Shown piece after piece: positions 1 to 22,669 of a stretch of DNA of 64,000 nucleotides. The position numbers and the translations under genes were made by a program. The notes under the pieces were generated by a model, which searched no databases, was not told the origin of the DNA, and worked only from the letters and a program-made list of their open reading frames with translations. The stretch covers positions 48,982,001-49,046,000 of the forward strand of contig OZ076409.1 of the NCBI GenBank assembly GCA_964187785.1, in the 5' to 3' direction. Within the stretch, counting starts at the first letter, position 1, and every line of letters begins with the position of its first letter. The stretch is from Amphiscolops sp. MND2022 (Eukaryota).

Positions 1-1746
1 GAGATGTTTTAACGATGATTAGTATAAATAAGCAAGTCGTAAGGAAAGTAGTAGGAAATTAGCAAGGTGAATAGGAAAGTTCATCCAATTTTCATCGCAG
101 TTGCAGATGTACATGAGAAAGTAGTTAGCTTGCGATTTTGCAGTTTTCAGTGATGAAATAGAGATGTATTTTCTGGTGAAATTCGACGTTGAGTATCCTA
201 CTGGATGGTAGCTAATCACAATTCGGTCTGAGTAATGTTTAATGGCGGTCCAATTTACAGCAGTTCACGTGTCTTTTCAGGCTGGTAAGACGCTAAATCT
301 CTTACCAGCCACCTCTTATTGGCTATTGCCAGTTGGTGCTAATTGGTAAGTCACGTGACCGGTGTTGTGAACTGCCGCAAGTTGGCTGAACCACATGGTA
401 CATCTACATATGCTAATTATGATTAATCATCACTTTACAATGTCGCAATTACCTGCACGCAGCATCATAGTTTCTATAGCAACCCAAATCATTCAAAAAT
501 GTACTAATTTCAAGTCAAACCAGAGTAAACTGTATCACAGGATGAGAAAACGATGTTTTCCAACTAATTCTAGCACCAAAATCAATACTTCAAAACTAAA
601 GATGGAAATGCGATGAATTTGTCAGAATATTTGCTGATTTTCAAGTCTAGTTTAGCTCTGGATGAAAATGCGATGAATGGTGGTCTTTTCGCTCGAAAAT
701 CAACACTATATAAACTGACGATGATAAAAGGATGAACTCTCCATAAAATTTGCCAATTTCCAGCACTGATTAAAATGACGATAAATTCAGGATGAATCCA
801 CTCAGAAAATGCTATTTCTAGCGCATGATCAGTTTTAGCGATGAGTTTAGGATGAACTCGTGAATTAAAACAGCAACTATCGAAGCAATTCAAACTAGCG
901 ATGAGTTTAGGATGAACTCATCCACTAAAATGGTAATTTCTCAACACAAGGTGAAATCATGATGAATTAATGATGGATTTGCTAAACAAATCAGATAACC
1001 AGCGCAATCACTCTTTTTTAGGATGGGTTAAGGATGTACTTTCTCATTTCTCTTCTATGTTAGTATGACGATGAATAAAGGATGTCTTACTGTCCTTAAG
1101 AAATGAGAAGCACTTTTGTGAGTTTCTACATGAAATATAACGATGAATTAGTGATGGAGTTTAACTAAAATGAGTCCCGTAAAATCCGCTGATGGATTTA
1201 TGATGAAAAGTAAAGTTTATTGTCCCATGCGTGGTTCATTCGCAATCTCGGAGATGGGATTGCGATGAACTTTGTTAACAGCACCAGTAAATCCGCTGAT
1301 GGATTTAAATGAAATCAAATCAGAATCATCACTAAATTAGACGATGAATTTGTGATGTATCTTTGATGAAATTTGTCACAACTACAAACTCTGAGGCGGG
1401 GAGCTAGTAGAAGTTATAACTTTCATCGTTTCTATATCTCGCGGTCCAGTCTGACCGGAAAACTTCTCTCCCTTGTCGTGACAAACCAATATTTAAGAAA
1501 AGTAGCACATCTAAGGCTAATGGCAAGATCATTTATGCCGACACCGGAACTAGAGCGCTCAGTATTAAGTAGATATATATAACTCACACTCAAAGGGGGA
1601 AGGGATTAAGGTACAAGTAACGTAGGGTTGCTCACAACCATGGCTCTTCTTATATGACTTCATATTGCCCATATCTAAGTACATAAGACATAATATTTAC
1701 ATTACAGATATTTAGTAGATTATATTTCCATCATGCTGGCATGACA
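1..1746 (-). repeat. 3' LTR of element A (partial, ~420 bp lies outside the window)
   Basis: Near-identical to 16937..18683; identity ends at ...CATGACA (1746), which is the TGTCATG start on the minus strand. Confidence 0.95.
541..1357 (+). repeat. Degenerate ~60-bp periodic array of GATG-N7-GATG in LTR A (same array in the 5' LTR)
   Basis: Motif starts at 541, 601, 661, 720, 840, 900, 961, 1022, 1070, 1142, 1191, 1253, 1343. Confidence 0.9.
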
Positions 1747-2043
1747 CTCCCGGGGGTGGGATTTGGACTGAGAGTGCAGGGGCCAAATGTGCAGAGGATG
1801 GTTGTCTCGGCGTTGGCTTCGACTGTTTCCTTCGTTTTGTTGGGGAGAAAATGTCCTTCGTTGGTTCTGAATTGGCATGTCCTTCGTTTGTTCTGTCCTG
1901 TGAGAGCTTCTCTGAGAAGAGGACCTTCGGTAATCGTCATTTCTGGCATCATCCTGGGTGATTTCGGTTAAAAATTTTCGACGCGGCAACTCTATTTCTT
2001 GGCCCATCGAATGTCCGCTGATCTGCATTTTATTGGTCGTCAT
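1720..2043 (-). CDS. Short sense ORF (107 aa, R/S/Q-rich) crossing into the 3' LTR of element A; possible ORF3 remnant
   Basis: Same position as ORF3 of element B (ends inside U3); no recognisable domain or visible similarity to B ORF3. Confidence 0.25.
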   Translation of the reverse strand: MTTNKMQISGHSMGQEIELPRRKFLTEITQDDARNDDYRRSSSQRSSHRTEQTKDMPIQNQRRTFSPQQNEGNSRSQRRDNHPLHIWPLHSQSKSHPRECHASMMEI

Positions 2044-2199
2044 GCTTTTGACGGGAGCTCGGTTTGTTGATTATTTCGGTAGAAATCTCGATTTCCTGGA
2101 GAAAAGTTTTCCCCCAGGCCGCCTACGCTGAGTAAACATTCAAGGCATCTTCGTTGACAAGTTCGCAGTGCGTTGTCGCCGCCATTCGTCTAAATCCAA

Positions 2200-2720
2200 A
2201 TTCTCGGGATGAATGAACGATGAATTGTTTGCTCAGCGAGACATCGATGCTGGTTTAGCGGAACGGCTGGCGCCGCTGCTTTGTTTACTCGCGATGGAAA
2301 GGAGATGAATCGTCGCCATAGCAACTGTCAAAAGTTACTTCCGCTGCTCGACTTTGAGCGATGAGAAAGAGATGAATTCGTCGCCATAGCAATTGTTGCT
2401 CGATCTGATTGGCTGAGACTGAATTTATAACTGAAGGAAATTACAACCGATTGTCAGCAGCATTCTCATCCATAAATCATCCTCCATTCAAGTCGGTTTG
2501 AAAATCGCCACGATTTCCTTTGCGCGTTTCCGCTCAACTTCGTCGGTATTGATCTGAGACTGGCAGCTGTCAACAAATCAAATACTTGAAGCTTTTTGTC
2601 AAGTCCTAGGAGAGGACGATCCATTTTCAGAGAAAGCTTGAGTTGGTTGTACTGGGAAGAAAAGTGATGTCAGTATTTGAAATCGGAGAGTTTTTCATCG
2701 ATTTTTCATCTTCTGAATTC
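2200..2720. promoter_or_regulatory. Putative internal promoter of element A antisense gene (X-box-like x2, CCAAT, GATG-N7-GATG x5)
   Basis: GTCGCCATAGCAAC at 2312-2325, GTCGCCATAGCAAT at 2380-2393, CTGATTGGCT near 2405, upstream of the ATG at 2922. Confidence 0.4.
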
Positions 2721-2921
2721 AAGTATTTGATTAACATGGCATTCAAGCTGCGTCGCGCTCTTTGAAATCTCCTATTGAATTTGTTCTTCCGTAATCATGG
2801 TTGATCAGGCCATTTAATTACTGATCAAATTCTCTGTTCCTGGATTCTTCGATTTCTTTCCTTCTTTCACCTTCTTCCATTCTTTTCAGATTGTTGCTTG
2901 CAATTCTCGTTCACATCCAAA

Positions 2922-5900
2922 ATGTCAGAGATTCATTCAGTTCATTCATTACCTGAGACCGAGACCACAGAAAGTAAGTGCACTATATTTCCTTTTCTTC
3001 ACAAACGGGTTTGGGACAATCAATTACTTAGGACGCACACTTGCTTTAGCTGACTCAGTCCACTCTGTCGGCATCGTGTCGGAACTCACGACACTGCAAA
3101 CTGTGCCACCCCAAGAAGCTCCTGTTGTCCAGCCGGTAGCCGCTGAGCCGCAGATTGACCCTGAGTTGCAGGTCGGTCAACCTGTCAATGTCCCGTATCT
3201 GCCGCAGTGTAAGTACTATCCTTCCATTCTTCAGTTCAGTCTTCGAATCCCTCATATCTCATCCTTACTTCGTCCATTAGCTGACTCCTTTTCGTACGGT
3301 GTTTCAGACCACTACCCTTGGTATGCCTCTCTTGGCAGCATCACCTTCGGGTGGTATGACCGCCACATGCGGGACATGCTGCGGGACAGCATCCAGCAAT
3401 TCAGTGAGTTTGTCAATTTACTTTTCATTCCTCTAGGCGATCGTCCGAACACTCCGATGTGATTCCGATGTAAACATCTCATCTGCATGTAGTGTCCTTT
3501 GCGGTCGATTACCCATGTAATTCATTTTTAAGATGAATTTAGGATGTGTCATGAACATTCACAGCTCTTCATGACTGACTCGCTGTAAATCCCATTTTTG
3601 AAGATGAGTTTTGGATGAAATCTTCTCCGGTCTTCTTTCTTCGCGCGGCGTACGCGCTCTTTCTTCTCCAATCGTCGTCGTCCAATAATTGTTTTCTTCT
3701 TTCAGGCCCAACGCCTATCCATGCCCCGAGACCGCGTCCCATCACCTATTCTATCGGGATCGGGACCAGTGACTTCGATGATGGCAGCGTTGACGTCAGC
3801 ACACAAGGAGGGCCTCCCCAACTCAATTTCTCCTCGTTCCTCAATGAACTGTCGTTAACTGGAGCGAGTTCTCCTGTCAGGCAGGCGCCAGTGTCTGTTC
3901 TGTCCCCTGTCTTGAGACGGTCCTTAACTGTTGCCAGTCTTCCTTCTGCTCGCCTTACTGTTGATGCAGGAGTCAATGCCATCGTCACTCCTGTTGATGT
4001 GGCAGTCGATGCCGTCGTCGCTGCCTCTGATCAAGCAGTTCAGGCCGTCGTGGAAGTCAGTGAGTCTTCCACTTCTTATGATCCTCCTGCTGAAATTGCT
4101 CCAGTTGCCGAATTGTTAGAGACTGTTCTTTGCGAGTCACCAAGTGCCAATGTTCGTCGTTTTTCCTTCAGCTTTGAGTCATCCGTGGAGCCACCTGAAG
4201 ACTTCACTGTGGATGGATCGTTGGCTGATGAACCTTCCTCTGAGTTGGCTGTCCCGGCACTAGACTCTGCCCCTGAAGAGACGTCTCCGATTGGTCCCAG
4301 TCTCGTCGACTCTGACGACGAGTTGATTGCAACCAGGCTGCCAGGTTACCTAAGCAACTTTAAAACATGTGAAGTATCTGATCAGTACCTGCATTCATTC
4401 ATCTTCCTTTTTTCATTTTTGCTAGCAATTCAGATTTTTCGTCTTTTTCATCTATTTTCCATCGTTTTAGTTCTTTTCGCTGTTCAGTTTTGCATGTTAT
4501 GTTTTTTCATCATTTTTTCATCGTTAAAAGTTTTCAAACATGGCGTTTTTCTCTTTTGTCTTGCATTCTAGCTATTTTAGCCACTTTTCATCTCTTTTAC
4601 ATCCTTAAAATTTTCCTTTTCGTTTTAGCTATTTTTCAGTGTTTTCTTTTCAGTTTACATCCCTTTTTCATCGTTAAGTTGTTTTCGCTCTAAAATATCT
4701 CAATTTTGGTTCAAAGTCGTTCTATACATCTCTTTTTCATCGTTCGAGTTTTCGTCTTTAAAAGTTTCGATTTTCATTCTGGTGGTCTGCAAACACATCT
4801 CTTTTTCATCTTTTCGTTTTTTCTTCGTTTTTCGCTTATATTTCCCGATGAAAATATTATTTTACATCATTTTTTCATCACTCCGGGTGACTTTTGGAAG
4901 TTTGTCGTGGTATTTTCATTTTTCAGTTTTGAAAGGATGATTTTTGTAGATTTGTTTTCTTTTTATTTCAGGAAGGAAAGTTCTCAAGTCAGCGTGGTTC
5001 GACCATGCTTATTGTGGATTGGCGTTAGGTTTTCCAAAAGATCACCTGACGCGTGATTCGTACGCGCGGTGCCTACTTTGCAAGCAGGATGTAAAGATCG
5101 GTAGCCGCGGCATAACGACGTTTCTTGAGCACTGCCGCGGAATGAGGCATCATCGTCTGGATTGCTTGGTGCGATTGCGACGTGGGCTCGCACTGCGGAA
5201 ACGGGATGGGACGCTCATGTCCGAAGCTGAGTGCGATGTATGTACGACGACGTTAGCTGGCGAAGCAGTGCCGGTAGTTGAGTCATGTCCCAATGTGACC
5301 GTGATCGAGGCTCTACAGATTGAGGCGACTGGCAGATCGGTGTGGGGCGACATATGCGCATCGAGCGACAGTGCGCAGGTTGAAAGTGTGAAGCTGTTTG
5401 TGTGCCTTGTCGTGGATGCTATATATCGCGACTGTGACTTCTCGAGTGTGCGTCATCTCTGGGACCTGATGGTGTCTTCGAATTTCCAGCATGCTGTTTT
5501 GTTTGGTTCGGCGTGTCGAGAGGCTGATGTACTGGTTATTATATTTTCATGTGTTGTATGTCATATGATATGTTTCATGTTTTGCGTGCACTAGTAATCA
5601 ACAATTAGGGCGTTTTTTTCTTTTATTTTTTGTTATTCTGGGTTGGGGGTGTATCTGAAAATGAGCTAAATGTCTTTTAAATGATTCCGATTTTTATGTT
5701 TAGAGTGTGGTCCTTTTGGGGTTGTGGCCCTATGTCATGCGGCGAGTACTGAGTCTGTGGACTGAGACCGAGTTCACTAGTTTTGGTGTATCTATTGTGG
5801 CGGACAGGGTGGTGGGCACCGTGAGCGTGTGTACTGTGGAGGGACTCGCAAGTTATGTGGTTCTATCTTTCAATTACTCGCAAGAATGGGAACAGCGTGT

Positions 5901-7591
5901 GGTCTCCTGGATGGTCAACTTGCTCTGTTGTGCTGTGGGGCAGGTCTCTCCTATTGGTGTCAACTGCAGTTTGTTACCCAGGCTAGAGCGTGCGCTGTTG
6001 AGGGGCTCTGGACTAGGAGCTGTTTCACTCATTCCTCTGCGGATCAGCGACCTGAATAAAGTTCTTGTTGACGCGAGTGTGCGCGTTATGGGCGGTGTTG
6101 ATGTGCATACACTGCTTAATCATTTGCAGACAAGGCTGAAAGACTTCGTGCATGATGCCGTTCTACTATCTTGTCCGAAACTATTGCAGGTGAATATGTG
6201 TTCTATATCAGTGTTTCTAATTGCATGTTTGTTTGTTGGAGATCGTGTGCTTTTAAGTTGGGCGAGTGGTGGATCTTGGTAAATTGTTATTATCCAGCTC
6301 GATGTTTTTCTAGGCTGTGCTGGAGGGAGAGGTCACTCTGTGGGATGTTCCCGACGTACTGACAGAGCTCCATACGAATTGGTTGGACATCGTTGTGCTA
6401 CTGAGGGTACCTGGTAATTCTGGTGTGCCTGACACTTTGGACATTGTGCTGTGTGGTGACCCTAGTGTGTCTCTTCGTCTTCATGCTTTGTCGCTGGTGT
6501 TTCGTGCTCGTATGTACAGTTTAATGTTTAGTAATCTATTTTGTAGGGGGGGCTGTTATATACACTTATCTATGAAGTTTGGTTTGATTGTCGTCGTTTG
6601 TAGCGGGGGGGGGCTATTGTATACACTTCTCAATGAAATTTTGTTTGATTTTAGTCGTTACTACCTTTCGTTGGAGCTTCAGTGGCTGCGAACTGAGGAC
6701 TGCACATTGGTCGTATGAAAGTTCATGCTTCGTGCACACTATTTTGTCCTATGTCGTTGAAGAGTCAGATCTCCCTGCCGTGTTGGATGTACGAGCTTGT
6801 TTGTGCATTGACCTCAATGGGCTAGTGGTTTCGGATGCCAAGTTAAATTCTCTTCGTGAGGAGTTTGCTGCCCATCTGGACTGTTTCGAGCGCCCTGACG
6901 TGTTTGAAGGGAATGTCATTCTAGTGAAAGACTTTCTGTTGTTGGTCGTGGAGGAGTTCTTGAGTGTACGAGGAGTGAAAGAAGAGGTAACTTTCCATCT
7001 GAGCGTTTGCTGTCCGGCCCTGCTATTGTCTTGTGATCCTGATGTTTTGTCAGCGGAAGTTGCACAGTTTACTGAGTTGCTAATGGAGCTGAGACGAGTC
7101 ACCGCTGTGGAGAAAAGGCGGATGGATAGAAGTTTCCCTGTATTCTTGGATAACTATCGGCGGATTGCTACTGGAGTGACTTCAGATAGTGCGAGTTCTG
7201 CTGTCGAAATTCTCCGAGCGTGTGATGGTGTGTCTGCGCAGCGGTTGTTCAGGTTTCTAATGTGCTTGAACGAGAGTCCACTTTTGCCGCTGAGAACACC
7301 TTGTGGTAGTGTGGGCCATTTACGGAGTGACATCACGACCAGCGTGTGTTCGAGTGTTTTCGAGTTTTCTCAAGGCTCATCGTATACGGAGATACGAGAG
7401 TGTCAGTGGACCTTTCTTGGAGGAAATCGCTGAATCATTTGGACGATTTACGACGCTGTCTGATGTAACGAACGGACGACATGCTATGGGACGACGTCGG
7501 TGTGGTGGCTGCCGAGGATTATCGCCAATCCCTGTACGAACTGCTGGGATTTACTGAAGAAGGAGAACGTGCTCCGAGTCCGGAGATTTGA
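2922..7591 (+). CDS. Antisense spliced accessory gene of element A: ~1050-aa zinc-finger protein, putative hAT-transposase derivative
   Basis: Predicted exons 2922-2973, 3050-3208, 3281-3403, 3706-4344, 4972-5534, 5704-6189, 6314-6509, 6655-7591, all with GT..AG introns and matching phases. Acidic S/P-rich N-terminus, then CLLC-x16-H-x5-H. As sequenced the frame stops at 7433; two +1 shifts (~7362, ~7471) are needed to reach the homologous C-terminus at 7591. Confidence 0.82.
4449..4879 (-). repeat. ~69-bp periodic array of CATC-N7-CATC in intron 4 of the antisense gene
   Basis: Motif starts at 4449, 4508, 4589, 4658, 4727, 4796, 4865. Confidence 0.9.
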
Positions 7592-10227
7592 GAATTCTAG
7601 TCTGTTGAACTTTTGATTGTGGATTATTTTATTTTATTTTTTCGTTTACTTGAAGTAGTGCTTTATATTACATTATAGTATAGTTTTAGTGGGTGTCCAA
7701 GTCAATGTGCCACTGCAAGTGGTGGGGGGGTAACTGCTGCGTCGGAAAAATCGGTGGCAGGTTGTATTTACAGAAGAATTATTTGGCGCCCGAATATTTT
7801 TTCTCTTGAGATACTAGTGATTAATTGTGCAGGTAGCGGTCGGTTAGGTTTACGGTAATGGAGTTCTTTTGTAGGTCGTAGTACTCAGCGTCTCTATTTT
7901 CCTTTGTCGTCTTTTTCGCATCGCTTATGTGTTCTTTTCTAACGTTGTTCATCCTTTAGGACATCGCGTGTATGTGTAGATATTTCAGTAATGCTTCGAT
8001 TTTGATTTCTCATCGTATTTTCATCACGTTTTCCTCGGTCGGCCGAGCGACGTCGCGAAAAGTGATTTTTCATCTTTTTTACATCGTTTGTTATATGCGA
8101 TTCATTGCATGTTTGTTACATGTGATTTTTCTACATAGTTCATCGTTTTTTCATCTTGCCTTTGAATTTTTGCATTTTTGCTGGTTTTTTGGTGTAATTC
8201 ATCGTTTTTGCATCGCAAGTTTGACTTGGCAAGTTTTTTGCTCATTTTGCTGTATAGTTCATCTTCTTTTCATCGTGGTTTTGAAATGTATGAATTTTTG
8301 CGTGTTTTCGATGTTATTTGGCTATAACGTAATCGGGGGTTGCATTTTTCATGTCTGGGGGAAATTTTTTATTAATATTGCGGTGTTTCGAAGTATTTTC
8401 TTCATGTATCTTAGCGTTATACGGTTATAACCGTTTGTCGTGTTTTGAATTTGCATGAATTTTGTGGTACATGTGTTTTGATCATCGTCGTCATGTTTCG
8501 AATTTGTCAACTACGGAACGTCATTGCATGTATTTTTATTTCGAGTTCTTGTGACCGCCGCTTGCGTGGCAGTCGAAGATAATTTCACTCAGCAGTGGTA
8601 CTGATAGCCTGTAGGCGTGCAAGGTACTAGTGGCTTCAGTCCAGAGCTGGGTGAGTGGAGCTGCTCCGCTCCTTTCAGATGAATGGAATCTCGTAGTTTC
8701 GGGCTATATATAGTCTATATGTCATTTTTTCGGTTGGTTGTTTGCCATTATTCGTCGAAATGGGTTTGTCCATTTGACGGTCGGTCCGATCAATCAATGT
8801 GATTGACATCTACGGTTATGCATGTGTCCAGTTTTAGACTATCTGTTTCTTGTATTTGCATGTATGGATTGTTACATGATGTGTTCTTTTAAATGGGTTG
8901 CCCCATTATTGACATGTCGTTATATGTTCGGTGTTAGTTTCATGTTTTTTAATTTGATATTTTTATTTTCGTTCATTTGGACAGGGCTTTGTCGTCACAA
9001 AGCCCCTACAAAACTAACTGAGAATCCACTAGCCGCTGGATAACCAACGCAGCAAGCTTCATCCGAAATTGGTTGTGAGCTCCCCGCCTCAACTAACCAG
9101 CACTCTTTTCAGAGAAATGCCAGCCAGCACGAAGGAATGTTTTTGGCTTATCGATAGGGGTGTTTTGCTTGTTATGAACTGATGTTTGCTGGGGGGTGCT
9201 CACTCCTTTGTTAGTTTTGTAGGTGTTTCGTCAGTTCTTATATTTTGCATGTAAGTTAGTAGTCTTCATGTATTTTCGATTGTTTGTTTCCTTTTTATTC
9301 GTCTAGGTTTGGATGGCTTTGGTGTGAATTGCATATATTATCTCATTCATTATTAAACGGTACATGTATATTTCCGTGCGTTGCTCATTTGTATTGCATG
9401 TAGTTTGGAATTGTTAATTTCTTTCGTGACGTCATTGAATTGGCAGGTCTTTGAACTTTACATGTATTGATCATTTCATTTTTGTGTCGCATAATTCTGT
9501 TTGCATGATTCGAAATAAAGTCGGTTGTTTTTTATCGTTTCGTGGAGTTACATGTTGTTTGAGAATTAGCTGATTCATTGTGATGTTATGTTGATGGTGT
9601 TTCCCATCACAAGGAGGTTTTGGTAAGTCATTTAATATTTTCGAATTTCCATTTAGACTAAATTCATCGTTTTGACATCCCCCAGCGAAGCTAGAGTATT
9701 GTGTCAGGTTAACGATAAATTCGGTCACGATGTGATGGTAGTGTCCATCACAAATTCATCTCGTTAATTGATTTCATGTAATTTATGAATAATTGGATCG
9801 AGTTCATCGCTATTTCATCCTCTAGCCGAGCTAGAGTCTTATGATAGCATGAACGTGAGTGCGTTCGCATTCTGATGGTATTTTCCATCTCAAATGCATC
9901 GCTAGTAAATATTGCATGTTGATTGGTCGAATTTTTGACTGAGTTCATCACTTTTTTGTCTCTCGTGTGTCTGAGGTAAATTTTCATGTGATTTCATCCT
10001 TTTTTCATCTCGAATTTTTATGTTCTGTTTTTTTCTGGTTTTTGGTCGTTTTTCATCCGTTTTACATCGTGTTTTGTTTGTATGCGTTTTTCATGTGATT
10101 TTTAGTAACTTTTCATCCATTTTACATCTTCATGTTCATTTTAAATTGAAATTGCATGTAATTGACTGGTTTTTGTGACTTTTTCATCCTTAACACATCG
10201 TGTGTTTGGAAATGTGGTTTTTCGTGG

Positions 10228-13200
10228 CTAATTCGTTACGTTTACTTTGTTGGTCTTTCTCAGAGAGTTTCTGGCTGTTGTAATCTCATGAATAAGGAAG
10301 TCAAGATATTTTTTCGGTGTAGGGTTTTCGCGTAACCTGTACCTACTTTGATTGTTTCTAGAAGGTCTAGAACTCATCCTTTCCTCATCTTCATTTTGCG
10401 TGTTTGTCTGTTGTGACTGATTTTCGTGTTGTTCGTCTCTCAGAGGTACTCTTATCCTACTTTCATCGCGGGGGGGCGGTAGAATAATTTCCTCCTGCGT
10501 CCCAAATCTAACTGTAGGTGGTCTAAAGTTGTTGTGGTCAGTTTCTACTTGCTGGTAATCTGTTCTCGTGGTTATTTCTGGTGGAATTACTTGTGGACTG
10601 TGTTGTTCTTGTACCTGCGGAATTATTTCTTCTGAAGGCTCTTCTTCGACTAAGTCTTGATCTAGATTGTCATTCTCATTCTGATCTACTTCGTCGGTCG
10701 TCGGAATATTCGAGTCGAAAATGTCCGTGTCTTCAACCCTTTCAGTGTCTGGGTAGAGATGTTTGGACACGTTGATGTCATCAATCGGAAATTCCGGTTT
10801 GAACAATCTCAGTCGCATGCGATGTACGCACTGAGTTTGGTGTGTGCCTACTTTGCGGATGATGTAGTTGCTATCGGATAGCACTTTCATCACCTTGTAC
10901 GGTCCTTTCCAGTGGAAAGTTTTAAACTCTTCTTTGCTTCTCTGAGAGTCGTACTTAGGATCTAGTAGGAACACAAATTCATTCACCTTCAGTGGCTGTG
11001 CTCGTGCTTTTCTATCATAGTACGTTTTGTACTTATGATAGGCGGAAATGATGTTATCTAGATTGTCTCTGAAGATGAAGTTCATTTTGTCTAGAATTTC
11101 GTTCACGTCCTTGCACTTTGTTTCAGCCGGTTTGTTTGCGTTTCGGAATTGCAGATCTAGTGGGTTGTATGGTGTTCTTCCGTGGAAAATTTCAGTTGGT
11201 GAACATCTCAGTGAATCATGATGCGTTGTGTTATGGGCCATGATTGCTATGTCGACATAGCGGTCCCATTGTGGTCTGTCTGCGTTTACACTAATTTTAA
11301 GGATCTTTTTCAGTTTCGCGTGCGTTCTCTCCACCATGCCTATTGTCTGCGCGTGCTTTATCGTGGCATGGGAGATGTGAATATCAGCCGCTTTCGCGAT
11401 TTCAGACAGAAGTTCAGCCGTAAACGCCGTGCCCTTGTCCGTCAGAATGTGCTTGGGCACATACGCGTGTTTCGTGAAGATCGACAGTAATCCTCTGACT
11501 ACGGAATGTGTATCAGGTCTCTTCAGCGGAACGGCGAACAGGTAGCGTGAAAAAACGTCAACAGCCGTCAGAATGTGTGTAAAACCGTTCGACGCCGGGA
11601 GTGGACCAACGATGTCTATTTCCAACAGGTCTTCTGGTCCGTCGCACGGGTCGTAGATTTTTTGTAACGGTGGACGTAGTTGCGTTTCTTTTACACTTTT
11701 AGACTTCATGCAGTTTTCACATCCGTCAGAGACTTTTTGAACTTTACAGGCTAAGTTAGGAGAGTAATATCTTTTACGAAGTTCATACAACATTTTCTTT
11801 AAACCAGGGTGTCCTTGTACCGGGCTGTTATGTAGAGTCCTAATTATTTTCAAAATACAGTCTTCAGGAACGACTAACTGCTTGTGAGACTCTAGTCCCG
11901 TGTGATCAAAAAACTGTCTGTACAAGACACCGTTTACAACTTGTAGGCGTTTTCGATTTTTGTACAACTTTTGAAAAAACTGATCTTGCATATTAACTGG
12001 GTGTTGCAAAATTTCAGTACCTTCTAAAAATCTAATCATTTTTTGGATAACCCAGTTATTTTTCTGGACCTGAATTAGATCGATCCCCTCGGCGGGGCTA
12101 ACCTGACTCATTACCGGGTGTGATAATGATACTTTACGGATGAATTGCGAGAGTTGAATCGGCTCGTCCACGTCTGTGAGGCGGTACGTCAGATGGTTGT
12201 CAGTCGCGAAGTCATCTGAGGCCGCTGTTCTCTCACAGTTGGTGAACTTCATCCCTTTCCCATCGTCATGAGCCACGTCAGTGCCAGTTGCCAATTTCAT
12301 CTCTTTGACATCCTTCTGGCGTTTGCATCTGAGTGGTTCGCTCGCGGGAAAGTAATCAGGCTCGTCTTCCTCCTGTTTTGGTGTACGGGAGGCGATGTCG
12401 ATCTCGATCCTGTGAATTGGAATAGTATCAGTCAATTTTAAATGTACACGGTCTTCAGGTCTAATCTCAAGCCGAGATAAGTAATCCGCTGCGGGATTTT
12501 CAACTCCTGTAACATGTGCTAATAGAAAATTGAACTGAAGGGTTTGATCGCAAAAATTCCAAAGTCAAGGCGGGATATGCTTCGCCTGGAAAAATCTAGT
12601 CAAGGCCTTATTGTCAGTCATAACAATGATGGGTTTTTTCGCACCCCACAAAATGTGGCCAAATTCATCGAAGGCAAAGTGCATAGCTAAAAACTCTTTG
12701 GCATACATTGTTAGAGACATCTGGCCGCCCTGAAATTTTTTAGAGCCAAATGCAACAGGGGCGTATGTGTGTTTGACTGACGGGTCAGCATAATCCTCAA
12801 TTAACAAAACATAGCCGGCAGCGTGTTCGCTGGCGTCACACATGATTACCAATTGTTTATCAGGTAATGGCAATTTCAGAGACACTTTTGTTGGTTTTAA
12901 CAAACTTTCATTGATTTCAAAAATAGCGTCTTTATGTTGTTGATTCAGTTTGAAAGGGACGTCCTTCTTGATCAATTCCTGTAAACAACAAGTTTTATCA
13001 GCTAGTCGGGGAATATAAGACCTGTAAAAGTTTACAAAACCAAGATAACGTTGCAACGCTTTCACTGAATTGGGGGGTTTCAACTTGGTTAGATAGTCAG
13101 TTACTCGTTTCTCAATGGGAGCAATACCGGTGCTAGAAATGGTTTTTCCCAAGTACTCAATTTGTTTTAGTCCAAATTCACATTTACTCATGCTAAGTTT

Positions 13201-15321
13201 GAGACCAGCTTTGTTCAACTGCTGAAAAACAAGTTCAAGGTTATTAATCAGTTCGTCAGGGGTGTGTGCTGCAATTCCAATGTCATCAACATATTGAGCA
13301 CATCGGTCCGCTTTGACCAAGGGGTCCAAATACTCACGGACTACACTTGTGAATGCTGACAAAGAACGGTTAAGACCTTGGGCTAGGCGTAAAAAGGCAA
13401 AAGTTCTAGAACCAAAATTAAATGATAACAGTTGGACAGACTGCTCATCGGCCATTGGAATGCAATGGTAGGCCTGGGAACAATCAAGTTTACAGAAATA
13501 CTTTTTCCCGGCCATGTGTTGGGCAGCGTCAGCAATTGTTGTTACGGGATGGTTGTGTTCACCGTAATCGTTTTTGATCAAGTGGTTTAATCTTCTCAAG
13601 TCAACTAAAATCCTCAATTTACCATTTGGTTTACGTTGGGCAAATATCGGAGATGAGTATTTGCTATGAGGCAAAGTAGTTATGATCCCGTACTCTTGCA
13701 TTAAAGCTAACTCCACGAGCAAATCGTCCTTCAAATTTGTCGGAGTCGGGAGACTTTGTGAATAAACAGGTTCTTCATGTTGAGGTGTTAACTTAACTTT
13801 AAAATCAGTGTTCATGCCAATATCAAAACGGTGTCTAGCAAAAATGGAGTTGTACTTTACCAGCAACTCCTCTACCTGTAACCGTTGAGACGGAGTAAGA
13901 AGCGAGTCGTCCCAGTTGAAGTTCTTCAGGAAGTTCATCCGTTGTTCATCGGATTGGGACGGGTCAAGCTTCTCGAGCTCTCGTAGTGCCAGAATCTCAT
14001 CATAGATTCGTCGCTCAATTGCGTTGAGTTTGTCTGGCTCACTGCACGTCTCGGGAGTTGGGTACCACTTAGTTGACTTCATTTCAGGGTTCACGAACAG
14101 TTGGTTGATCACTGCTTCCGCCTCATCTGGGTACTTGGTGATCAGGTTCAAGTGTTCGACTGGCATGGGTGTGATGTTTGCCGCTTGATGTGGTGTCGGT
14201 ATGCGAAAGTGTGCCAGAGTGGTGTTGGCATCAAGTGTGAACGTGTGGTTGTTCGGGTTGGTGACCTGGATTGTCGTCTTGCCCTCGTCTAGGTCAACCA
14301 AAGCTGGGGAAACAAGCAAACACGTCTTTCGCATGAATCCAGGTGAGCCCTCAACTGTACCAGTTGTGAGTGAGATGTCCGCGTCGCTGTGGACCTGTAT
14401 CATCTCTTGATGGAGAGGAGGGATCACTGTTCTGGTACTGGAACACAAATCAATTAAACCAGTTTTGAATCTGTTGTTCTTTTGCTGTCTAACTTGCATG
14501 GACATCATGTGATTAGGGAAGTGGACAAGGTGGTTTTTTATGTCTAAATTGACTGAGTACTTTTCAAAGAATGACATTCCAATTAAAATTGTGCCCATTG
14601 TTGGAAGGATTAGGAACGTTTCTTTAAAGACTTTTCCAGCAACGTAAAATCTAAGTAAGACTTGCTTACGTACTGGGACTAAGTTCCCGTTTGCTATTTG
14701 AATTTTGAAATTCGGAGGGGGGAGTTCTTGAAGGATGGCTTCTGGATGGGCCGTTGTTATTTTTCGCAATTCTGCTTCAGACATTGCACTTTGAATTGCG
14801 CCTGTATCTAAAAGTGCGCTGTTTTCATATTTGTCAAACTGAAGAGGGACGTAAAGCATTTTATCTTTCTTGTTTAAGTGTAAAGTGGGACTGAGAACGT
14901 GAATTTCTGTTTTAGTTGCATGTTTTTTAGCTTCTGAAACGTTAATACTACTCTGTTTTGCATGTTTTTTAATACTAAGCCGTTGGTCGATAGTTGAGTG
15001 TGAAGTTGAGTCGTCGTCTAGATGGTTGGTTTCCATCTCTTTGGAATCTTCCACCTGCCTCATGGTGTCTGGTTGCCAGTTCATCGTTTGTTCATCGTTG
15101 ATTTCAGCGAGTGGAGAAAAGCGGCTGCCGTTGAGTTGACGTGCATTTCCCATCGCTTTTTCATCGTTGGAAAGTCTTCGCTGATAGACGTCGTCAGCTT
15201 TTGGTCGTTTGTCCAGTGAAGGCTGCCATTTCTTCATTGGACGGTTGTGAGTCTGTTGTTGAGTCGTAAGTCGTTTGTCGCGCGTGTCGTTGGTAGCGGG
15301 CGGAAATCGTGGCGGAATCAA
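10228..15321 (-). pseudogene. pol: Pol of element A (protease, RT, RNase H, integrase) with one in-frame stop
   Basis: LLDTGA protease, LDCSQAY and YVDD RT motifs, CDAS RNase H, HHCC + D,D35E + GPY integrase. ORFs 12565..15321 and 10228..12435 share a frame and are split by a single TGA at 12565-12567 (KHIPP*LWNFCD). Confidence 0.93.
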
Positions 15322-16826
15322 AAACCCTGATTTATGTCTTCATCAGAGTAGCTTTCTTGGTCTTCTTCCTCGGCAACTGCTTGCATAGGATTCATCGGCT
15401 TTTGCTGTCGTTTTAAATCTTGTCGTCTAGCCTTGTTGTCGTCCTGTGAGTTCGTTGTGTATGGAATCTTTCCATATGCAGAGCTGCTTTCCTTGGGAAT
15501 GCGTCGTCTGCAGTCTCTTGCAGAGTGGCCGGTGTATCCACAAATCTGACAGACCAACTTCGGATTGTATTTCGGTTTGTCTGGGTCTGCTGCTTTCTTC
15601 ATCGGGATTGCATCTTCTTTCTTAATGCCGTTTGCTTCGTCACGTTGTCGGGCGCGACATTCCGTTTTGCGGTGACCTGTCTTTCCGCAGTAGAGGCATT
15701 GTCCCTCAAATCGTTTTCTTTCCGTGGGTTGCGTTGTCGTCGTTGTTGTTGTGGGCTTCGTCGTTGTAATCGTTGCTGGGGCTGAGGAGGTGACCGCGTT
15801 AAATGGTTGGATTGCCGTAGGTGGCGCGACGTACTGCTGGTACTGGTACTTTCTCATCAAGTATGTCTTGATTTCCTCTGGGGAGCTCTCTTCTTTGTTT
15901 GCCATGGTGAGCTCTTGTTGAATCTCGACTGGTAGTTTTCCAAACAAGAACATTTTGATTACTTTGTCGGCCTCATTGCCGAAGGCTTGTTTGGCAGTCT
16001 TCTTGAGATTTTTGAGGAAATCTCCGAATGTTTCTGTTGTGGGATCATAACGTGCTTGGTCCCACTTGTAACGGGCCACTTCCTTGAGATCCTCTTTTGC
16101 AAATTCTTTTCTGAAGAGGTCGAGTACGTCCTTTAGTGTTGTCATTGGCGTTATCTGGATGGATTGCCAGTATTCTATTGCGTCATCTCTCAAAAGGCTT
16201 TGAAAGAAGTGTAGTTTGTTCTCCTCGGTGATTTTGTTGGCAAGCGGGCTGAGGTGGTTGAGGAGAAGGTGTTCAAATTCGACGAATTTGTCTTTTTGGC
16301 CTCTGAAATTTGGCACGTGTGTCTGCAGAAGCTTCGTGTTGGTGGTGGTGTTTTTGATCCGTTGGGGGATCGTCTCGATTGCATTGAGTAGTCGTTCCTC
16401 ATTGCTTCGGGGGGTTGATTCTCCCTCTTCGTCTGAGTCGTCTTCTTGGTATCTTCTGAAGTTGGTGAAGCTGGTTGTCGGGCGGGTGGAGCGGGTTTCT
16501 GTAACTCCTGTCACCATGTCGAGCCCTACCGTGTGGGCCGGCTTTGAAGGACCTTTCGAAGTTGATGGCCGACTTTCACTCTCTGTCTTATTTATAACGG
16601 CCATCATTAAGTCCTTCAGTTGACTAAACTCATTTTGCAAGTCGTTTATTTTCCTTTCGTAACTTTCTCTTATTTCAGACAACTGAGAAGAGATGTCTGA
16701 AGTTTCGTTGCTATCAGAGTCATGGGCAGACGTCTGGGCCATGTCTGGATCAGTTGGAATAGATGTTTCAGACGAGGAACTAATAATTTTACCACTTCTG
16801 AGCTCAGTACCTTGTTCTGGATTCAT
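15318..16826 (-). CDS. gag: Gag of element A (502 aa)
   Basis: Retrotransposon gag-like core; two CCHC knuckles CLYCGKTGHRKTEC and CQICGYTGHSARDC; ends at slippery G GGT TTT. Confidence 0.93.
   Translation of the reverse strand: MNPEQGTELRSGKIISSSSETSIPTDPDMAQTSAHDSDSNETSDISSQLSEIRESYERKINDLQNEFSQLKDLMMAVINKTESESRPSTSKGPSKPAHTVGLDMVTGVTETRSTRPTTSFTNFRRYQEDDSDEEGESTPRSNEERLLNAIETIPQRIKNTTTNTKLLQTHVPNFRGQKDKFVEFEHLLLNHLSPLANKITEENKLHFFQSLLRDDAIEYWQSIQITPMTTLKDVLDLFRKEFAKEDLKEVARYKWDQARYDPTTETFGDFLKNLKKTAKQAFGNEADKVIKMFLFGKLPVEIQQELTMANKEESSPEEIKTYLMRKYQYQQYVAPPTAIQPFNAVTSSAPATITTTKPTTTTTTTQPTERKRFEGQCLYCGKTGHRKTECRARQRDEANGIKKEDAIPMKKAADPDKPKYNPKLVCQICGYTGHSARDCRRRIPKESSSAYGKIPYTTNSQDDNKARRQDLKRQQKPMNPMQAVAEEEDQESYSDEDINQGF
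15321..15327 (-). other. -1 ribosomal frameshift heptamer G GGU UUU (gag-pol, element A)
   Basis: XXXYYYZ heptamer in the gag frame just before the TGA; pol is open in the -1 frame from here. Confidence 0.75.
16505..16516 (-). other. Primer-binding site of element A (TGGTGACAGGAG)
   Basis: TGG immediately after the LTR-terminal ACA; the same 12-mer abuts the LTR in elements B and C; one mismatch from a tRNA-Leu-type PBS (TGGTGTCAGGAG). Confidence 0.85.
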
Positions 16827-18683
16827 ATAGACGAGGGAAAAGGATTATGAGTGAAGACTGGATTATCTGAGATGTTATTGCGATGTATTTTTGCTGTTCT
16901 ATTCGATTGTAATCTCTAATTCACTAAGTTTGAACAGAGATGTTTTAACGATGATTAGTATAAATAAGCAAGTCGTAAGGAAAGTAGTAGGAAATTAGCA
17001 AGGTGAATAGGAAAGTTCATCCAATTTTCATCGCAGTTGCAGATGTACCTGAGAAAGTAGTTAGCTTGCGATTTTGCAGTTTTCAGTGATGAAATAGAGA
17101 TGTATTTTCTGGGGAAATTCGACGTTGAGTATCCTACTGGATGGTAGCTAATCACAATTCGGTCTGAGTAATGTTTAATGGCGGTCCAATTTACAGCAGT
17201 TCACGTGTCTTTTCAGGCTGGTAAGACGCTAAATCTCTTACCAGCCACCTCTTATTGGCTATTGCCAGTTGGTGCTAATTGGTAAGTCACGTGACCGGTG
17301 TTGTGAACTGCCGCAAGTTGGCTGAACCACATGGTACATCTACATATGCTAATTATGATTAATCATCACTTTACAATGTCGCAATTACCTGCACGCAGCA
17401 TCATAGTTTCTATAGCAACCCAAATCATTCAAAAATGTACTAATTTCAAGTCAAACCAGAGTAAACTGTATCACAGGATGAGAAAACGATGTTTTCCAAC
17501 TAATTCTAGCACCAAAATCAATACTTCAAAACTAAAGATGGAAATGCGATGAATTTGTCAGAATATATGCTGATTTTCAAGTCTAGTTTAGCTCTGGATG
17601 AAAATGCGATGAATGGTGGTCTTTTCGCTCGAAAATCAACACTATATAAACTGACGATGATAAAAGGATGAACTCTCCATAAAATTTGCCAATTTCCAGC
17701 ACTGATTAAAATGACGATAAATTCAGGATGAATCCACTCAGAAAATGCTATTTCTAGCGCATGATCAGTTTTAGCGATGAGTTTAGGATGAACTCGTGAA
17801 TTAAAACAGCAACTATCGAAGCAATTCAAACTAGCGATGAGTTTAGAATGAACTCATCCACTAAAATGGTAATTTCTCAACACAAGGTGAAATCATGATG
17901 AATTAATGATGGATTTGCTAAACAAATCAGATAACCAGCGCAATCACTCTTTTTTAGGATGGGTTAAGGATGTACTTTCTCATTTCTCTTCTATGTTAGT
18001 ATGACGATGAATAAAGGATGTCTTACTGTCCTTAAGAAATGAGAAGCACTTTTGTGAGTTTCTACATGAAATATAACGATGAATTAGTGATGGAGTTTAA
18101 CTAAAATGAGTCCCGTAAAATCCGCTGATGGATTTATGATGAAAAGTAAAGTTTATTGTCCCATGCGTGGTTCATTCGCAATCTCGGAGATGGGATTGCG
18201 ATGAACTTTGTTAACAGCACCAGTAAATCCGCTGATGGATTTAAATGAAATCAAATCAGAATCATCACTAAATTAGACGATGAATTTGTGATGTATCTTT
18301 GATGAAATTTGTCACAACTACAAACTCTGAGGCGGGGAGCTAGTAGAAGTTATAACTTTCATCGTTTCTATATCTCGCGGTCCAGTCTGACCGGAAAACT
18401 TCTCTCCCTTGTCGTGACAAACCAATATTTAAGAAAAGTAGCATATCTAAGGCTAATGGCAAGATCATTTATGCGGACACCGGAACTAGAGCGCTCAGTA
18501 TTAAGTAGATATATATAACTCACACTCAAAGGGGGGAAGGGATTAAGGTACAAGTAACGTAGGGTTGCTCACAACCATGGCTCTTATTATATGACTTCAT
18601 ATTGCCCATATCTAAGTACATAAGACATAATATTTACATTACAGATATTTAGTAGATTATATTTCCATCATGCTGGCATGACA
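16517..18683 (-). repeat. 5' LTR of element A (2167 bp)
   Basis: TGTC...GACA inverted termini; inner edge fixed by the adjacent PBS, outer edge by loss of identity with the left copy. Confidence 0.92.
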
Positions 18684-19818: not shown

Positions 19819-21309
19819 TGTGATAATCCTCACCTAGGCTCTCTGCGTCAGACTCTTCGTCTGAGTGTATAGTTACATCTACATCGGACTCACTTCGAAA
19901 CAAAAGCTTTGCGGGATGTTTTAAGTCTCTCATTTTTGAAGCCTTGGGAGGAAAATCCTCGTTTTCAGAATCTGGATTCTCGATATTAGATGCGCGAACT
20001 CCTATAGACTCATCTATTCTAGATCCCGATTGCTGATTTTCTTGTATTTCATTTATGTCTGATCTTGGGTTTGTCGCTGTTGATGAGCTTTTTTAGTTTT
20101 TATTTCCCTTAGAATTGCTTCTAATTTGTTATCCATTTCTTCTCGCATCTTTTCAATTCTGTCATTGCTTTTTTGTTCCATTATTTGGGTCCAAACTTGT
20201 ATCTCATTGCTAATTTGGCTAGGTTCAACCAAGCTGTTCTCAGGGTTATTTTCGCCTAAATTACTTTGAATAACTGTATCATTATTAGTTAAAGTCACAT
20301 TACCTGATATTGGTGTCTCTGCCTGAGTTCTCTCCATTTCCCTTTCTGGGGATGGAGTTTCTAGCCTTCTAGATCGTCTATTTCTTTTGTTTTCCATCCT
20401 CTCTCAATTGAAAAATGAATTGCAGTTATTGGGGAAGAATTTGAATTGATCCTTTTATTTGGCAAAACCAAATTGGAAAGAGAAAATGATAGTAAAGATG
20501 AAAGTTTACAGAAGAGAATTGTAGATTTTGAAGCGACTGCATTTTAGTAGAATTGGAAAAGTTGTGTCTCACCAAATTATCCTAGCTGTCTATAACAATC
20601 ATGACATCCCTTTTTACGGGCATCACCCTCTGGGAAACACATAAATAGAATTACATCACAATAACATCAGTCTATTTATAGTACAAAGGCCCTGGAGGAA
20701 TGACAATCAAATACGAAATGATAATGTCTAAGAAACCCTAGAAAAAGTATGGAATTACTTAAGAATGGTATTTGCATGACTAATCAACATTAAGATTCAC
20801 TACATCATCAATTTGGAGAGCAACACTGCTAAAAACGCATGTTGACTAGTATACATTATGCATCGAAACGCATAATACCGCATATAAGCACTTATGCGGA
20901 AATGACGCATTTTGACGTATAAGCACTTTCACTCGAAACGTATGTTGACGCATGAACGTACTATCTTGAAATGTATGTTACCGCACAATGATCGAGACAT
21001 ATTATTTCCAAAACAGATTGTGAATCACATATTACATAAATCTCAACTTCATGACTCATCAACTTGATTAACGAACATGAAAAACTAAATCTCAATACAA
21101 TCTAAGATGTATTAAGTCATCTAAAAGAACAAAATCAACAGAACTAACAACTCTACCCGAAATAACCTATTTACATGACATCAATAAAACAGATGAAAAA
21201 CAAACATAACATGTCATAAACTCAGTTGTGAAACTTCAAGTTACTTTCAGTCCTCATTCACCTTTTCAGCGCTGCACTCCGGCTCCCATGCAGGTACTTG
21301 GCTGCAACA
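19819..21309 (-). repeat. 3' LTR of element B
   Basis: Copy of 34076..35567; includes a frameshifted duplicate of the gag 5' end (ORF 20053..20397). Confidence 0.95.
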
Positions 21310-22669
21310 GTCCCGCATTTTTAAAGGTGAAAAGGGCTGCTTCAAAACCATCTATGAAGGCGCGGGAACGTACATTTCGATCACGTACTGTCTCGGCTTT
21401 GTAGGCTGTTGCAAGAAGGTTTTCGCCTAATATCTCAAGGGCTATCTGATCATAAGTTTTACCGCACCAATCGCAGAACCCTGCAATATTAGGCATGACT
21501 GTTGGTGATAATCGGTAAACATTTCTTTCTTCCGCTGGTAGAAATAATATATTTGTACTGTGTGTCGCCTGTACTATGAAGGCTTGTTGTATAAATGGAG
21601 GCACTGGTGGGTCGTTATGAACCGCCACAAAGTTAGGTATGACAGATGGAATTTGTATCATCAGTGGTACTGGGTTTGTTAGTTGATTTGGGTTTGTGAG
21701 GTGTGAGTTAGCAGCTGCACCAGGAGGCCTGTTATGTAGATAATCGTTCACATTATTGTGATCAGCTGTTTGAACTTCCGAGATATTGTCTCCCAGGTCG
21801 GTAAAGTTACTTATATCAGCACTAAAGCCTGGTGGGTAGTTAGGTCGTGGTCTTCGTGGTAATCCTCTGCCTCTGCCCCGTTCTCTCGGGGTAGGAAGAA
21901 TCGCCGCTGATGGCCTGCCGTAGCTGTTTAGTGGGGGTTGTTGAACCATTTCCTGGTCATCCGGAGATTCAGGTGATTCTTCAAATTCCGAACTCACGAA
22001 TGAAGATGGTGTCATTGAATGATTGCTCTGATGTTCATCAATTAGGTCAAGCAATTGTCTTTCTATTTGTGATCCGGCAGTATCTATTATTTCTGTGTCT
22101 AATTGCGACGCCGTTGACTGGGGGAAAAGAGTCATGGCGGGTGCCCCGGCGAATGCAGTCATCGCGTTTGATCCTGGAGCGCCCACTCGGAACCTTTCCT
22201 CAATTGCATTCACATTCCCGGGTTCAACAGTGAACTCATCTCCACTCTCACTAGAGATATCTATTACAGAGGGCGATGATCCAAAGGTGTCCATCAGATC
22301 GTCCAGTCTGAATTGTAGTCTGTCCATTCTCACTTCGATGTCGGGTTTGTGATGAAAGTAACTTATGTCTAGGATGGTAGTTCTATTGAGAATTATTCAG
22401 TGAAGTTTTATGTGAACAACTGGTTTTGACTCGGTTATAGACCATATGGTGATTAGTTTATGATTTCCTGGTGAAAAATAAGGAAAACCCGCGGAAAAAA
22501 TGAGTGTCATGTCAACAATATTCCACGATCCCCTTATAAGGGTTTCCTTTGCTATGAAGCAATGGGTTCCGCCATCATCAAGGTGTAAACAAGTCCTTTT
22601 AAGGTGATTCTTCAGGGTTTTCCCGCTAACAGCACCTTCTTTATTCTCTTCACGGCATTTCGTTGTCAT
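21266..22669 (-). pseudogene. Sense ORF3 of element B (467 codons, one internal TGA at 22397-22399)
   Basis: ORFs 22397..22669 and 21266..22333 are in one frame with an open linker (IILNRTTILDISYFHHKPDIE); ends 44 nt inside the 3' LTR; contains VIDISSESGDE and FCDWCG. Confidence 0.7.

Follow-up and report, generated by a model that had tools for sequence, protein, structure and literature searches.

Element A is a Ty3/gypsy retrotransposon of 19.1 kb that includes an intron-bearing gene in antisense orientation. It carries about 55 strictly conserved copies of GATG-N7-GATG, which are very probably selected protein-binding sites on double-stranded DNA. Sister families each have a different motif and a matching finger variant, and thus each family likely makes a protein that recognizes its own DNA. 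That the arrays are bound by the element's own antisense zinc-finger protein, which would likely keep copies of the family transcriptionally active, is proposed tentatively, at slightly less than an even chance. Taken by steps, the binder is probably the element's own protein and, given that binder, activation or anti-silencing is the outcome we would favor.

Distribution of the dyad in element A

Within the window, i.e., the whole 64,000-nucleotide stretch of DNA analyzed, element A is identified as a Ty3/gypsy LTR retrotransposon by its LTRs and TSD and by a gag followed by protease, RT, RNase H, and integrase (Table 1). The LTRs (-419..1746 and 16517-18683) have TG...CA ends with the TSD TTGAT and are 99.5% identical over the visible part, and Pfam matches occur in the order zf-CCHC, gag-asp_proteas (weak), RVT_1, RT_RNaseH, Integrase_H2C2, and rve.

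A regular-expression search of positions 1-10,200 found 46 sites at n = 7, 23 on each strand, and 0-2 at every other n from 0 to 20, where a Markov model predicts 0.23 GATG-N7-GATG sites for the non-coding parts. These counts (46 also in 1-10,199) bear out an earlier sequence-only reading, which had claimed more than 40 copies in both orientations against less than one chance copy per 10 kb and had named a peak at n = 7 as the check. Its regional tallies stood for 2208-2710 (5), intron 4 (7), 8011-8274 (5), and 9665-10199 (8), but had to be corrected for the visible LTR (17 instead of 16) and intron 3 (3 instead of 2); one site, at 9582, lies outside the arrays it named. Depletion in coding exons, also put forward for checking, was found in the antisense exons 3706-4345, 4972-5534, 5704-6189, and 6661-7590, which hold no site, but not in gag-pol, which holds eight (10375, 12250, 12298, 13936, 14734, 15082, 15151, and 15600; 0.31 expected), 8/8 of them starting in codon frame 0. 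The motif is absent from introns 5 and 6 of the accessory gene as well. The same eight sites contradict the claim that gag-pol is free of arrays, which does hold for element B, where one site per LTR (20654, 34912) equals background. In unrelated DNA, n = 7 was matched 18, 6, 6, and 12 times in 200, 200, 200, and 190 kb, and these 790 kb contained no 60-bp arrays, in line with the comparison that the reading had suggested. Part of the 18 comes from a GAT microsatellite and from repeated copies, and in the 190 kb with 12 matches n = 7 ties with n = 11 as the top spacing.

Table 1. Features of element A, in window positions.
Feature	Position	Strand	Remarks
3' LTR, visible part	1..1746	-	starts at window position -419; 17 sites, main array 541-1368 in ~60-bp steps
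Five sites between LTR and antisense gene	2208..2710	.	likely promoter region of the gene, inferred
Predicted accessory gene, antisense, intron-bearing	2818..7590	+	inferred exon boundaries, based on GT/AG signals and frame conservation
Intron 3	3406..3705	+	3 sites (3456, 3532, 3603), by regex
Exon 4	3706..4345	+	acidic, Ser/Pro/Thr-rich: 31 D/E, 9 K/R, 68 S/P/T in 211 aa
Intron 4	4346..4971	-	7 sites (4449-4879), steps 59-81 bp, four of them 69 bp
Exon 5	4972..5534	+	C-x2-C-x16-H-x5-H zinc finger and helical region; candidate DNA-binding part
Exon 6, accessory gene	5704..6189	+	
Last exon region, accessory gene	6661..7590	+	helical; weak hAT C-terminal lead in clade-B homologue
Array	8011..8274	-	5 sites, 59-70-bp steps
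Array	9582..10199	-	8 sites on - (9665-10199) and one on + at 9582
pol (protease, RT, RNase H, integrase)	10228..15339	-	7 sites; in-frame stop near 12,565
gag with CCHC knuckles	15318..16844	-	1 site (15600); frame opens within 5' LTR
5' LTR, 2,167 bp	16517..18683	-	17 sites; followed on - strand by TGG-initial primer-binding-like site

Conservation of the 4-mers and their register

Across ten subfamilies, column identity is 96-97% in the two 4-mers and 82-84% in spacers, lone GATGs, and background, at a synonymous divergence of ~1 or more, and the dyad is retained down to 42% finger-exon identity. The 46 perfect sites are accompanied by only nine with one mismatch (5.6 expected by chance), and linkers between sites are no more alike than shuffled DNA. 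By these measures both 4-mers and the 11-bp register are under selection, as had been proposed from diverged surroundings in which the 4-mers and exact spacing are kept, and GATG-N7-GATG is best understood as a putative binding site of a dimeric protein. The regular 60-70-bp steps would suit neutral relics of old tandem repeats, but Tandem Repeats Finder detected no 60-70-bp tandem array, and the chance-level near-misses, the shuffled-level linkers, and 4-mers that outlast such synonymous divergence leave that origin with a negligible probability; unless the alignments are biased, the column-wise test refutes it.

The steps also fall close to multiples of 10-10.5 bp, with a Rayleigh R of 0.69 at 10.2 bp. 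Together with the A-rich spacers and the presence of both orientations, this would fit a structural signal, acting either through DNA bending or nucleosome positioning by phased A-tracts and GATG, or through pairing of + with - copies within the genomic RNA. Such a signal is most improbable, since GATG is far better conserved than the A-rich spacer and the motifs of other clades are G/C-rich. Only one spacer is common to the 22 distinct + and 21 distinct - spacers, which indicates that RNA pairing is not kept, and pairing between copies was set aside.

The accessory finger protein and the dyads of sister clades

The accessory gene encodes a CxxC-H-H zinc-finger protein under purifying selection, with dN/dS of 0.06-0.34 across exon segments and the lowest values in the finger (0.06-0.14; 5 unsaturated pairs). 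The ligands C33, C36, H53, and H59 are conserved in 90% or more of the sequences in both sets compared (55 and 129), and the pattern C, C, G, H, H, R reaches the same level among the 129 relatives. Residues around the finger helix are invariant within clades and different between clades. The sequence-only reading had included neither an element-encoded candidate binder nor the motifs of sister clades.

Pfam searches of the window exons and the exons of 21 relatives returned no informative family and no match for the window finger; zf-BED matches only 5/129 relatives at E <= 0.05 (best E 1.6e-4), with weak matches to KIN17- and Prp9-type fingers as well. For the finger, Atlas leads are zf-C2H2_12 and zf-BED (0.90-0.92; recognition below threshold), and a clade-B query placed 24 of 30 Atlas matches in Dimer_Tnp_hAT clusters at 0.91, with low recognition. 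A finger profile ranks the fingers of local hAT ORFs first, weakly; HMM and hhalign comparisons with hAT ORFs from 50 same-genome loci (mostly Ac-type) confirmed no homology beyond this weak finger signal, and hAT homology of the middle and C-terminal parts was not confirmed by Pfam, HMM, or hhalign. Protein databases yielded no longer relatives of the finger exon or the C-terminal alignment (weak negatives), PDB sequence searches gave nothing significant, and AlphaFold gave models of low quality (mean pLDDT 49 and 59), with fold searches lacking a meaningful match. By eye, the protein appears to be collinear with Buster/ZNF862-type hAT transposases, with the first catalytic Asp missing. Derivation from a hAT transposase is only a lead.

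Each clade of related elements features its own dyad. GATG-N7-GATG occurs in 22-58 copies in 21/21 clade-A elements and in 0-2 copies in 31 other elements; ACG-N8-ACG in 15-43 copies in 11/11 clade-C elements (other gaps 2-8); and GAC-N5-GTC in 15-23 copies in 6/6 clade-D elements (other gaps 3-4.5). Clade B is weaker than the other clades, with 6-15 copies of CGCATA-N4-CG in 6/8 elements, the exceptions being window element B (3 sites) and a close copy (2). One degenerate D-related copy lacks the motif, and one A2 element has 18 copies of ACG-N8-ACG, an off-diagonal exception. In a blind test on a fresh 190 kb, the sole finger element, whose finger is D-like, contained 32 copies of GAC-N5-GTC vs. 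1-11 at other gaps. The clades of P0156 (no close genome match, best 49%) and P0224 (not found at a strict threshold) lie outside this sampling. Judged from sequence, these families thus combine an element-encoded accessory protein under selection with a family-specific short motif, as in VANC/TnpA-type systems, less firmly so for clade B.

Grouping by finger gives the same clades as grouping by RT. The match is therefore based on four lineages, in which an element's own protein and lineage-specific host factors are inseparable. Five LTR elements without the finger gene have no dispersed dyad; they comprise three distant RT families (28-32% identity) and one element without an RT match, and as controls they are therefore confounded with lineage as well. 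It is this confounding that keeps alive the view that a transcription or insulator factor of the host is drawn to the arrays, a different one in each lineage, and that the accessory gene has another job. There is precedent in an LTR element with twelve repeats for a host factor (PMC2493044), and the half-site resembles CGATA, the clustered target of the host BED protein BEAF-32B (PMC5021357). Host recruitment would, however, require four host factors, all reading short dyads of 10-11-bp register or length. Moreover, the extended motif CGATGAA-N5-GATGAA, with 6,322 matches genome-wide vs. 70 for a reversed control, lies almost wholly within clade-A DNA (28 of the first 30 matches, with one further match showing a weak clade-A match and five sites), and no arrays occur in the 790 kb of other DNA, a sample that does not single out host promoters. 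A host factor as the binder is on balance unlikely.

Possible roles, known systems, and abundance

If the element's own protein is the binder, it would coat the copies of its own family, with two fingers sitting head-to-tail, one helical turn apart, on half-sites (A/C/G)GATG(A/G)(A/G). Steps of ~49, 60, 70, and 81 bp would phase successive pairs and so allow cooperative loading, and the acidic N-terminal part might recruit host activators or block silencing. As fingers diverge between lineages, the motif would change alongside, such that each family acts on itself alone. A bolder and more doubtful extension is that a hAT transposase without catalytic activity was taken up by a Ty3/gypsy radiation as a spliced antisense gene and became a private transcription factor, whose finger may co-evolve with a helically phased code in LTRs, introns, and codons, giving lock-and-key self-activation of the VANC/TnpA kind with little CpG methylation signature in the genome.

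VANC and TnpA are described as binding family-specific clustered motifs (PMC5735166; 10.64898/2026.08.24.746577). As in the Arabidopsis VANDAL/VANC system, a transposon encodes an accessory protein, a short motif lies in introns, intergenic, and terminal non-coding parts, and the motif varies between related families (PMC5735166). VANDALs, however, are plant Mutator-like DNA transposons and VANC works via loss of DNA methylation (PMC5735166), whereas the element here is an LTR retrotransposon with a gapped dyad as the candidate binding site, no methylation signature, and no VANC-like domain by Pfam; unlike in strict VANC systems, its arrays are no longer recognizable as tandem repeats. TnpA of Spm belongs to CACTA DNA transposons and binds their termini (10.64898/2026.08.24.746577), while the present sites span a whole retrotransposon. 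The self-recognizing anti-silencing systems covered by these two sources belong to DNA transposons of plants and act on DNA methylation (PMC5735166; 10.64898/2026.08.24.746577). Clade A shows no CpG hypermutability, with CpG transitions at a ratio of 1.22 in LTR pairs and at 0.209 vs. 0.199 in 30 copies, so a VANC-like reversal of DNA methylation is without support.

The Hermes hAT BED finger, a similar Cys/His finger, reads a 4-bp core site and then A/T-rich DNA, present in many copies, with cooperative paired binding (PMC10368747). The Hermes sites differ in their position close to DNA-transposon termini, and the pair studied is quasi-palindromic (PMC10368747), as opposed to the direct repeat at 11 bp here. 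The Drosophila gypsy insulator bound by Su(Hw) is likewise a cluster of protein-binding repeats in an LTR element, but its protein is a host protein and its repeats form one block of 12 (PMC2493044). BEAF-32 similarly places a BED protein on clustered CGAT-containing motifs, but as a host protein and with no spacing rule described (PMC5021357), in contrast to the strict spacing here. A literature search, judged by titles and abstract starts and with subscription papers mostly out of reach, returned no published description of a motif-array and finger system. The present case is best read as a putative VANC/TnpA-like scheme in an LTR retrotransposon of an animal-type genome, with a gapped dyad as its motif. 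If true, it would reveal how retrotransposons, one family at a time, escape or get around host silencing.

To our knowledge, antisense extra ORFs of LTR elements have so far had no assigned function. In Grande, RIRE2, and Retand such ORFs occupy, in the same orientation as here, the interval that separates pol from the 3' LTR; one Retand ORF has a transposase_28 domain and a regulatory role has been suggested (PMC7264820). Those are plant elements for which the accessible text mentions no cognate motif arrays (PMC7264820), unlike the present gene with its several introns, zinc finger, and associated dyads. The present case supplies a candidate function for such ORFs, along with four naturally occurring finger-motif pairs for which diagonal specificity is predicted. 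It is also a natural series from which the DNA recognition of this finger type could be learned.

All evidence for self-recognition (selection, the clade-by-motif match, and finger conservation) would also fit binding by the element's own finger protein for another purpose, either self-repression as a brake on copy number or a role in handling the element's cDNA (nuclear entry, compaction, or choice of insertion site). Sites cover the entire element including gag-pol, and their density in clades C and D is as high inside ORFs as outside, which would suit the coating of a whole DNA molecule; hAT BED fingers are also described as binding subterminal repeats for transposition (PMC10368747). Against this, the density in clade A is ~5x higher outside long ORFs, with a peak in the LTR and introns, and the acidic N-terminal exon fits an activator. 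Another purpose is a minority possibility, if a substantial one. As for self-repression, the LTR pairs are mostly 97-100% identical, and the family's size and recent activity do not point to a strong effect of this kind. At about 6-7 extended motifs per element, the 6,322 genome-wide matches would correspond to roughly 900-1,000 clade-A element-equivalents, an abundance that may help explain the 1.07-Gb genome size.

A spaced dyad in element A

Across window positions 1-10,200, a regular-expression count finds 46 GATG-N7-GATG sites in element A (the 19.1-kb Ty3/gypsy retrotransposon at the left of the window), 23 on each strand, against just 0-2 copies for each other spacing from 0 to 20, which bears out the abundance of this spacing noted in the sequence-only reading. 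The regional counts of that reading held overall, with corrections in the LTR (17 sites rather than 16), in intron 3 (three, not two) and at 9582, where there is an extra site. When every pair of 4-mers is scanned de novo, the motif again comes first in element A (54 copies vs. 1.67 expected). Gag-pol, where that reading had noticed no arrays, in fact holds 8 sites where 0.31 are expected; all start at codon frame 0, which appears to be the sole frame in which GATGA avoids reading as a stop for the seven sense-oriented sites. Arrays are absent from four unrelated regions totaling 790 kb (18, 6, 6, and 12 sites), and the related element B, where the same reading had noticed none, carries the motif once per LTR.

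Selection on the two 4-mers, likewise proposed earlier, is upheld by pairwise alignments of element A with ten subfamily members, in which they are 97.0% and 96.3% identical, compared with 83.5% for the spacer, 77-80% for the flanks, 83.6% for lone GATG/CATC, and 82.2% for non-coding background. Comparison among the relatives, which are not independent of one another but were used to lessen ascertainment, gives, at sites below 5,000, 93.2% identity in the 4-mers against 76.0% in the spacer, 76.2% in lone copies, and 69.4% in the flanks. The non-coding DNA of element A holds 46 perfect and 9 one-mismatch sites, with 5.6 of the latter expected by chance; that the arrays are a neutral relic is very improbable. 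When 503 sites of relatives are mapped to element A, 424 are perfect, 65 differ, and 14 are unaligned, which indicates slow turnover. Tandem Repeats Finder does not detect a 60-70-bp array, and the linkers between sites are about as alike as shuffled DNA (e.g., 0.53 vs. 0.50).

A profile of 561 sites resolves two like half-sites, approximately (A/C/G)GATG(A/G)(A/G), 11 bp apart. The 35 same-strand steps in element A group at 48-49, 59-62, 67-72, and 81 bp, and the Rayleigh R reaches 0.69 at a period of 10.2 bp, one of several examined; p is 6e-8 under independence and 0.006 when just the distinct values are used, and a 12-bp period yields 0.03. This periodicity is taken, with moderate confidence, as helical phasing of the sites; that DNA shape or RNA pairing accounts for the arrays is improbable.

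Motifs of the finger clades

GATG-N7-GATG is a real, strongly selected feature within a larger clade-specific pattern. Elements were fetched from four finger clades (A, including subclade A2, to D) and more were found in unselected regions, with one LTR counted per element and the mean of six neighboring gaps as background. Each of the 21 clade A/A2 elements carries the motif 22-58 times, where the background does not exceed 2.3, and the other 31 elements have 0-2 copies. Clade C features ACG-N8-ACG (15-43 in 11 of 11 elements; neighboring gaps 2-8), clade D GAC-N5-GTC (15-23 in 6 of 6; neighboring gaps 3-4.5), and clade B CGCATA-N4-CG (6-15 in 6 of 8; element B has just 3 and a closely related copy 2). 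One degenerate D-related copy lacks any motif, and a dispersed dyad is absent from five LTR elements that carry no finger gene, controls that are distant lineages and include two with identical RT.

Once detected, the motifs of clades C and D turned up again in members fetched separately. Over clade C as a whole, CG-N9-CG adds up to 1,076 copies, and other gaps give about 240-370. A blind test on a fresh 190 kb was passed: the sole finger element, whose finger is D-like, coincides with the sole GAC-N5-GTC peak (9, 22, and 11 per 10 kb vs. 0-3) and holds 32 such sites, other gaps giving 1-11. In clades C and D (L101-L110, L151-L158, L159-L166) the motif is equally dense in and outside long ORFs, and is thus written into codons. 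Genome-wide, there are 6,322 copies of CGATGAA-N5-GATGAA and 70 of the reversed control; of the first 30 extended-motif matches on one chromosome, 28 fall within clade-A DNA. Locus L196 (G000:C1:6156538-6159555) has 5 GATG-N7-GATG sites and matches clade-A LTRs over a short stretch only, at 74-75%; it could be a solo LTR or belong to a more distant subfamily.

Clade A retains its motif down to 42% finger-exon identity. In A2 (L131-L138) the half-sites shift towards CGATG, and CG-N9-CG is in excess (215 vs. about 120) in the register of the clade C motif, which may mark a route from one motif to another. An RT tree built on 45 of the 52 elements (the remaining 7 had no long RT match) and the finger tree yield the same clades, so that the match between motif and finger rests on four lineages and is not proof of co-evolution. 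Binding of the arrays by a host factor, as with gypsy/Su(Hw), is doubtful and ranks third in probability among the explanations considered. Within clade A (L031-L050, L139-L150), RT is near-identical (mostly 95-98% aa) while accessory exons share 57-85%, and DNA identity to element A jumps near the accessory-gene end, which suggests frequent recombination among subfamilies.

The accessory gene and its predicted role

Features of elements A and B and of the remaining window
Feature	Window position	Strand	Description
Element A	-419 to 18,683	gag/pol on -	TTGAT target-site duplication
LTRs of A			2,167 bp; 99.5% identical across visible part
gag and pol of A		-	Ty3/gypsy order
pol of A	near 12,565		In-frame stop
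gag frame of A	16517-16844		Opens within 5' LTR
Accessory gene of A	between pol and 3' LTR	+	Intron-bearing
Element B	19819-35567		Related Ty3/gypsy; 1,492-bp LTRs, 99.6% identical
Finger gene of B	24082-27911	antisense	Element B's own
CGCA-N12-TGCG in B	20879, 26567, 26600, 26666, 35137		Palindromes
Extra frame of B	21266-22396	-	376 aa
Direct repeat	41506-46870		1,084 bp at 87% identity; may represent an older LTR element
Short tandem arrays	53824-54486 and 56874-57641		Inverted pairs; TCACCCCA-rich and others

The accessory gene, with exon limits drawn from splice signals and conserved frames rather than RNA, includes one acidic exon rich in Ser, Pro, and Thr, the finger exon with its C-x2-C-x16-H-x5-H pattern, and two more. 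The finger exon has at least 150 matches in the 1.07-Gb genome (G000) at 72-100% identity. Purifying selection on the gene is indicated by a dN/dS of 0.06-0.14 for the finger segment (5 of 11 pairs with unsaturated dS) and of 0.09-0.34 for the remaining segments.

The family assignment of the finger is unsettled. A profile built from six finger sequences matches 619 database proteins. Of these, 129 were aligned, and each of the residues C, C, G, H, H, and R is retained by at least 90% of them; Pfam recognizes zf-BED in 5 of the 129 and ZN292-like C2H2 in 28, and no Pfam family matches the copy in the window. Atlas, with low recognition scores in both cases, suggests zf-C2H2_12/zf-BED for the finger and Dimer_Tnp_hAT for the clade-B C-terminus. 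HMM and hhalign comparison with same-genome hAT ORFs did not confirm the hAT link beyond a weak finger signal.

In the best-supported reading, advanced tentatively from sequence, the element's own finger protein would bind the dyads as a head-to-tail pair, load cooperatively along the phased arrays in LTRs, introns, and spacers, and, once bound, keep its own family active. The same binding in the service of self-repression or cDNA handling is unlikely, and ranks second. VANC-like reversal of DNA methylation is unsupported, because CpG transitions between LTR pairs are not raised in clade A (13 of 1,773 vs. 51 of 8,477) and two background regions have a CpG observed/expected ratio of about 0.92; the other clades show 2.2-fold (B, on 8 events), 1.2 (C), and 0.9 (D). 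Any anti-silencing would more likely act through chromatin or direct activation.

As far as the available parts of the sources extend, VANC (PMC5735166) and TnpA (10.64898/2026.08.24.746577) are element-encoded proteins with family-specific clustered motifs, a pairing also predicted for element A. However, the arrays of element A are not tandem repeats, and binding and activation are predictions, so it is not classed with them. The accessible portions of further sources indicate that the Hermes BED finger has a similar site grammar (PMC10368747) and that the half-site is similar to the CGATA of BEAF-32B (PMC5021357), that plant elements carry antisense extra ORFs of unknown function at the same position (PMC7264820), and that Arabidopsis elements encode accessory proteins (PMC13547354), with nothing akin to the element A system in the part available. 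A literature search covering few subscription papers found no description of the system.

Long open hAT transposase frames of 597-697 aa are present in the same genome (L231-L235), a pool from which the accessory gene may have been drawn. One clade-A copy (L038) has its pol broken by an insertion of 5.8 kb that carries 613-bp direct repeats (L037+L038 element positions 11706-17541).
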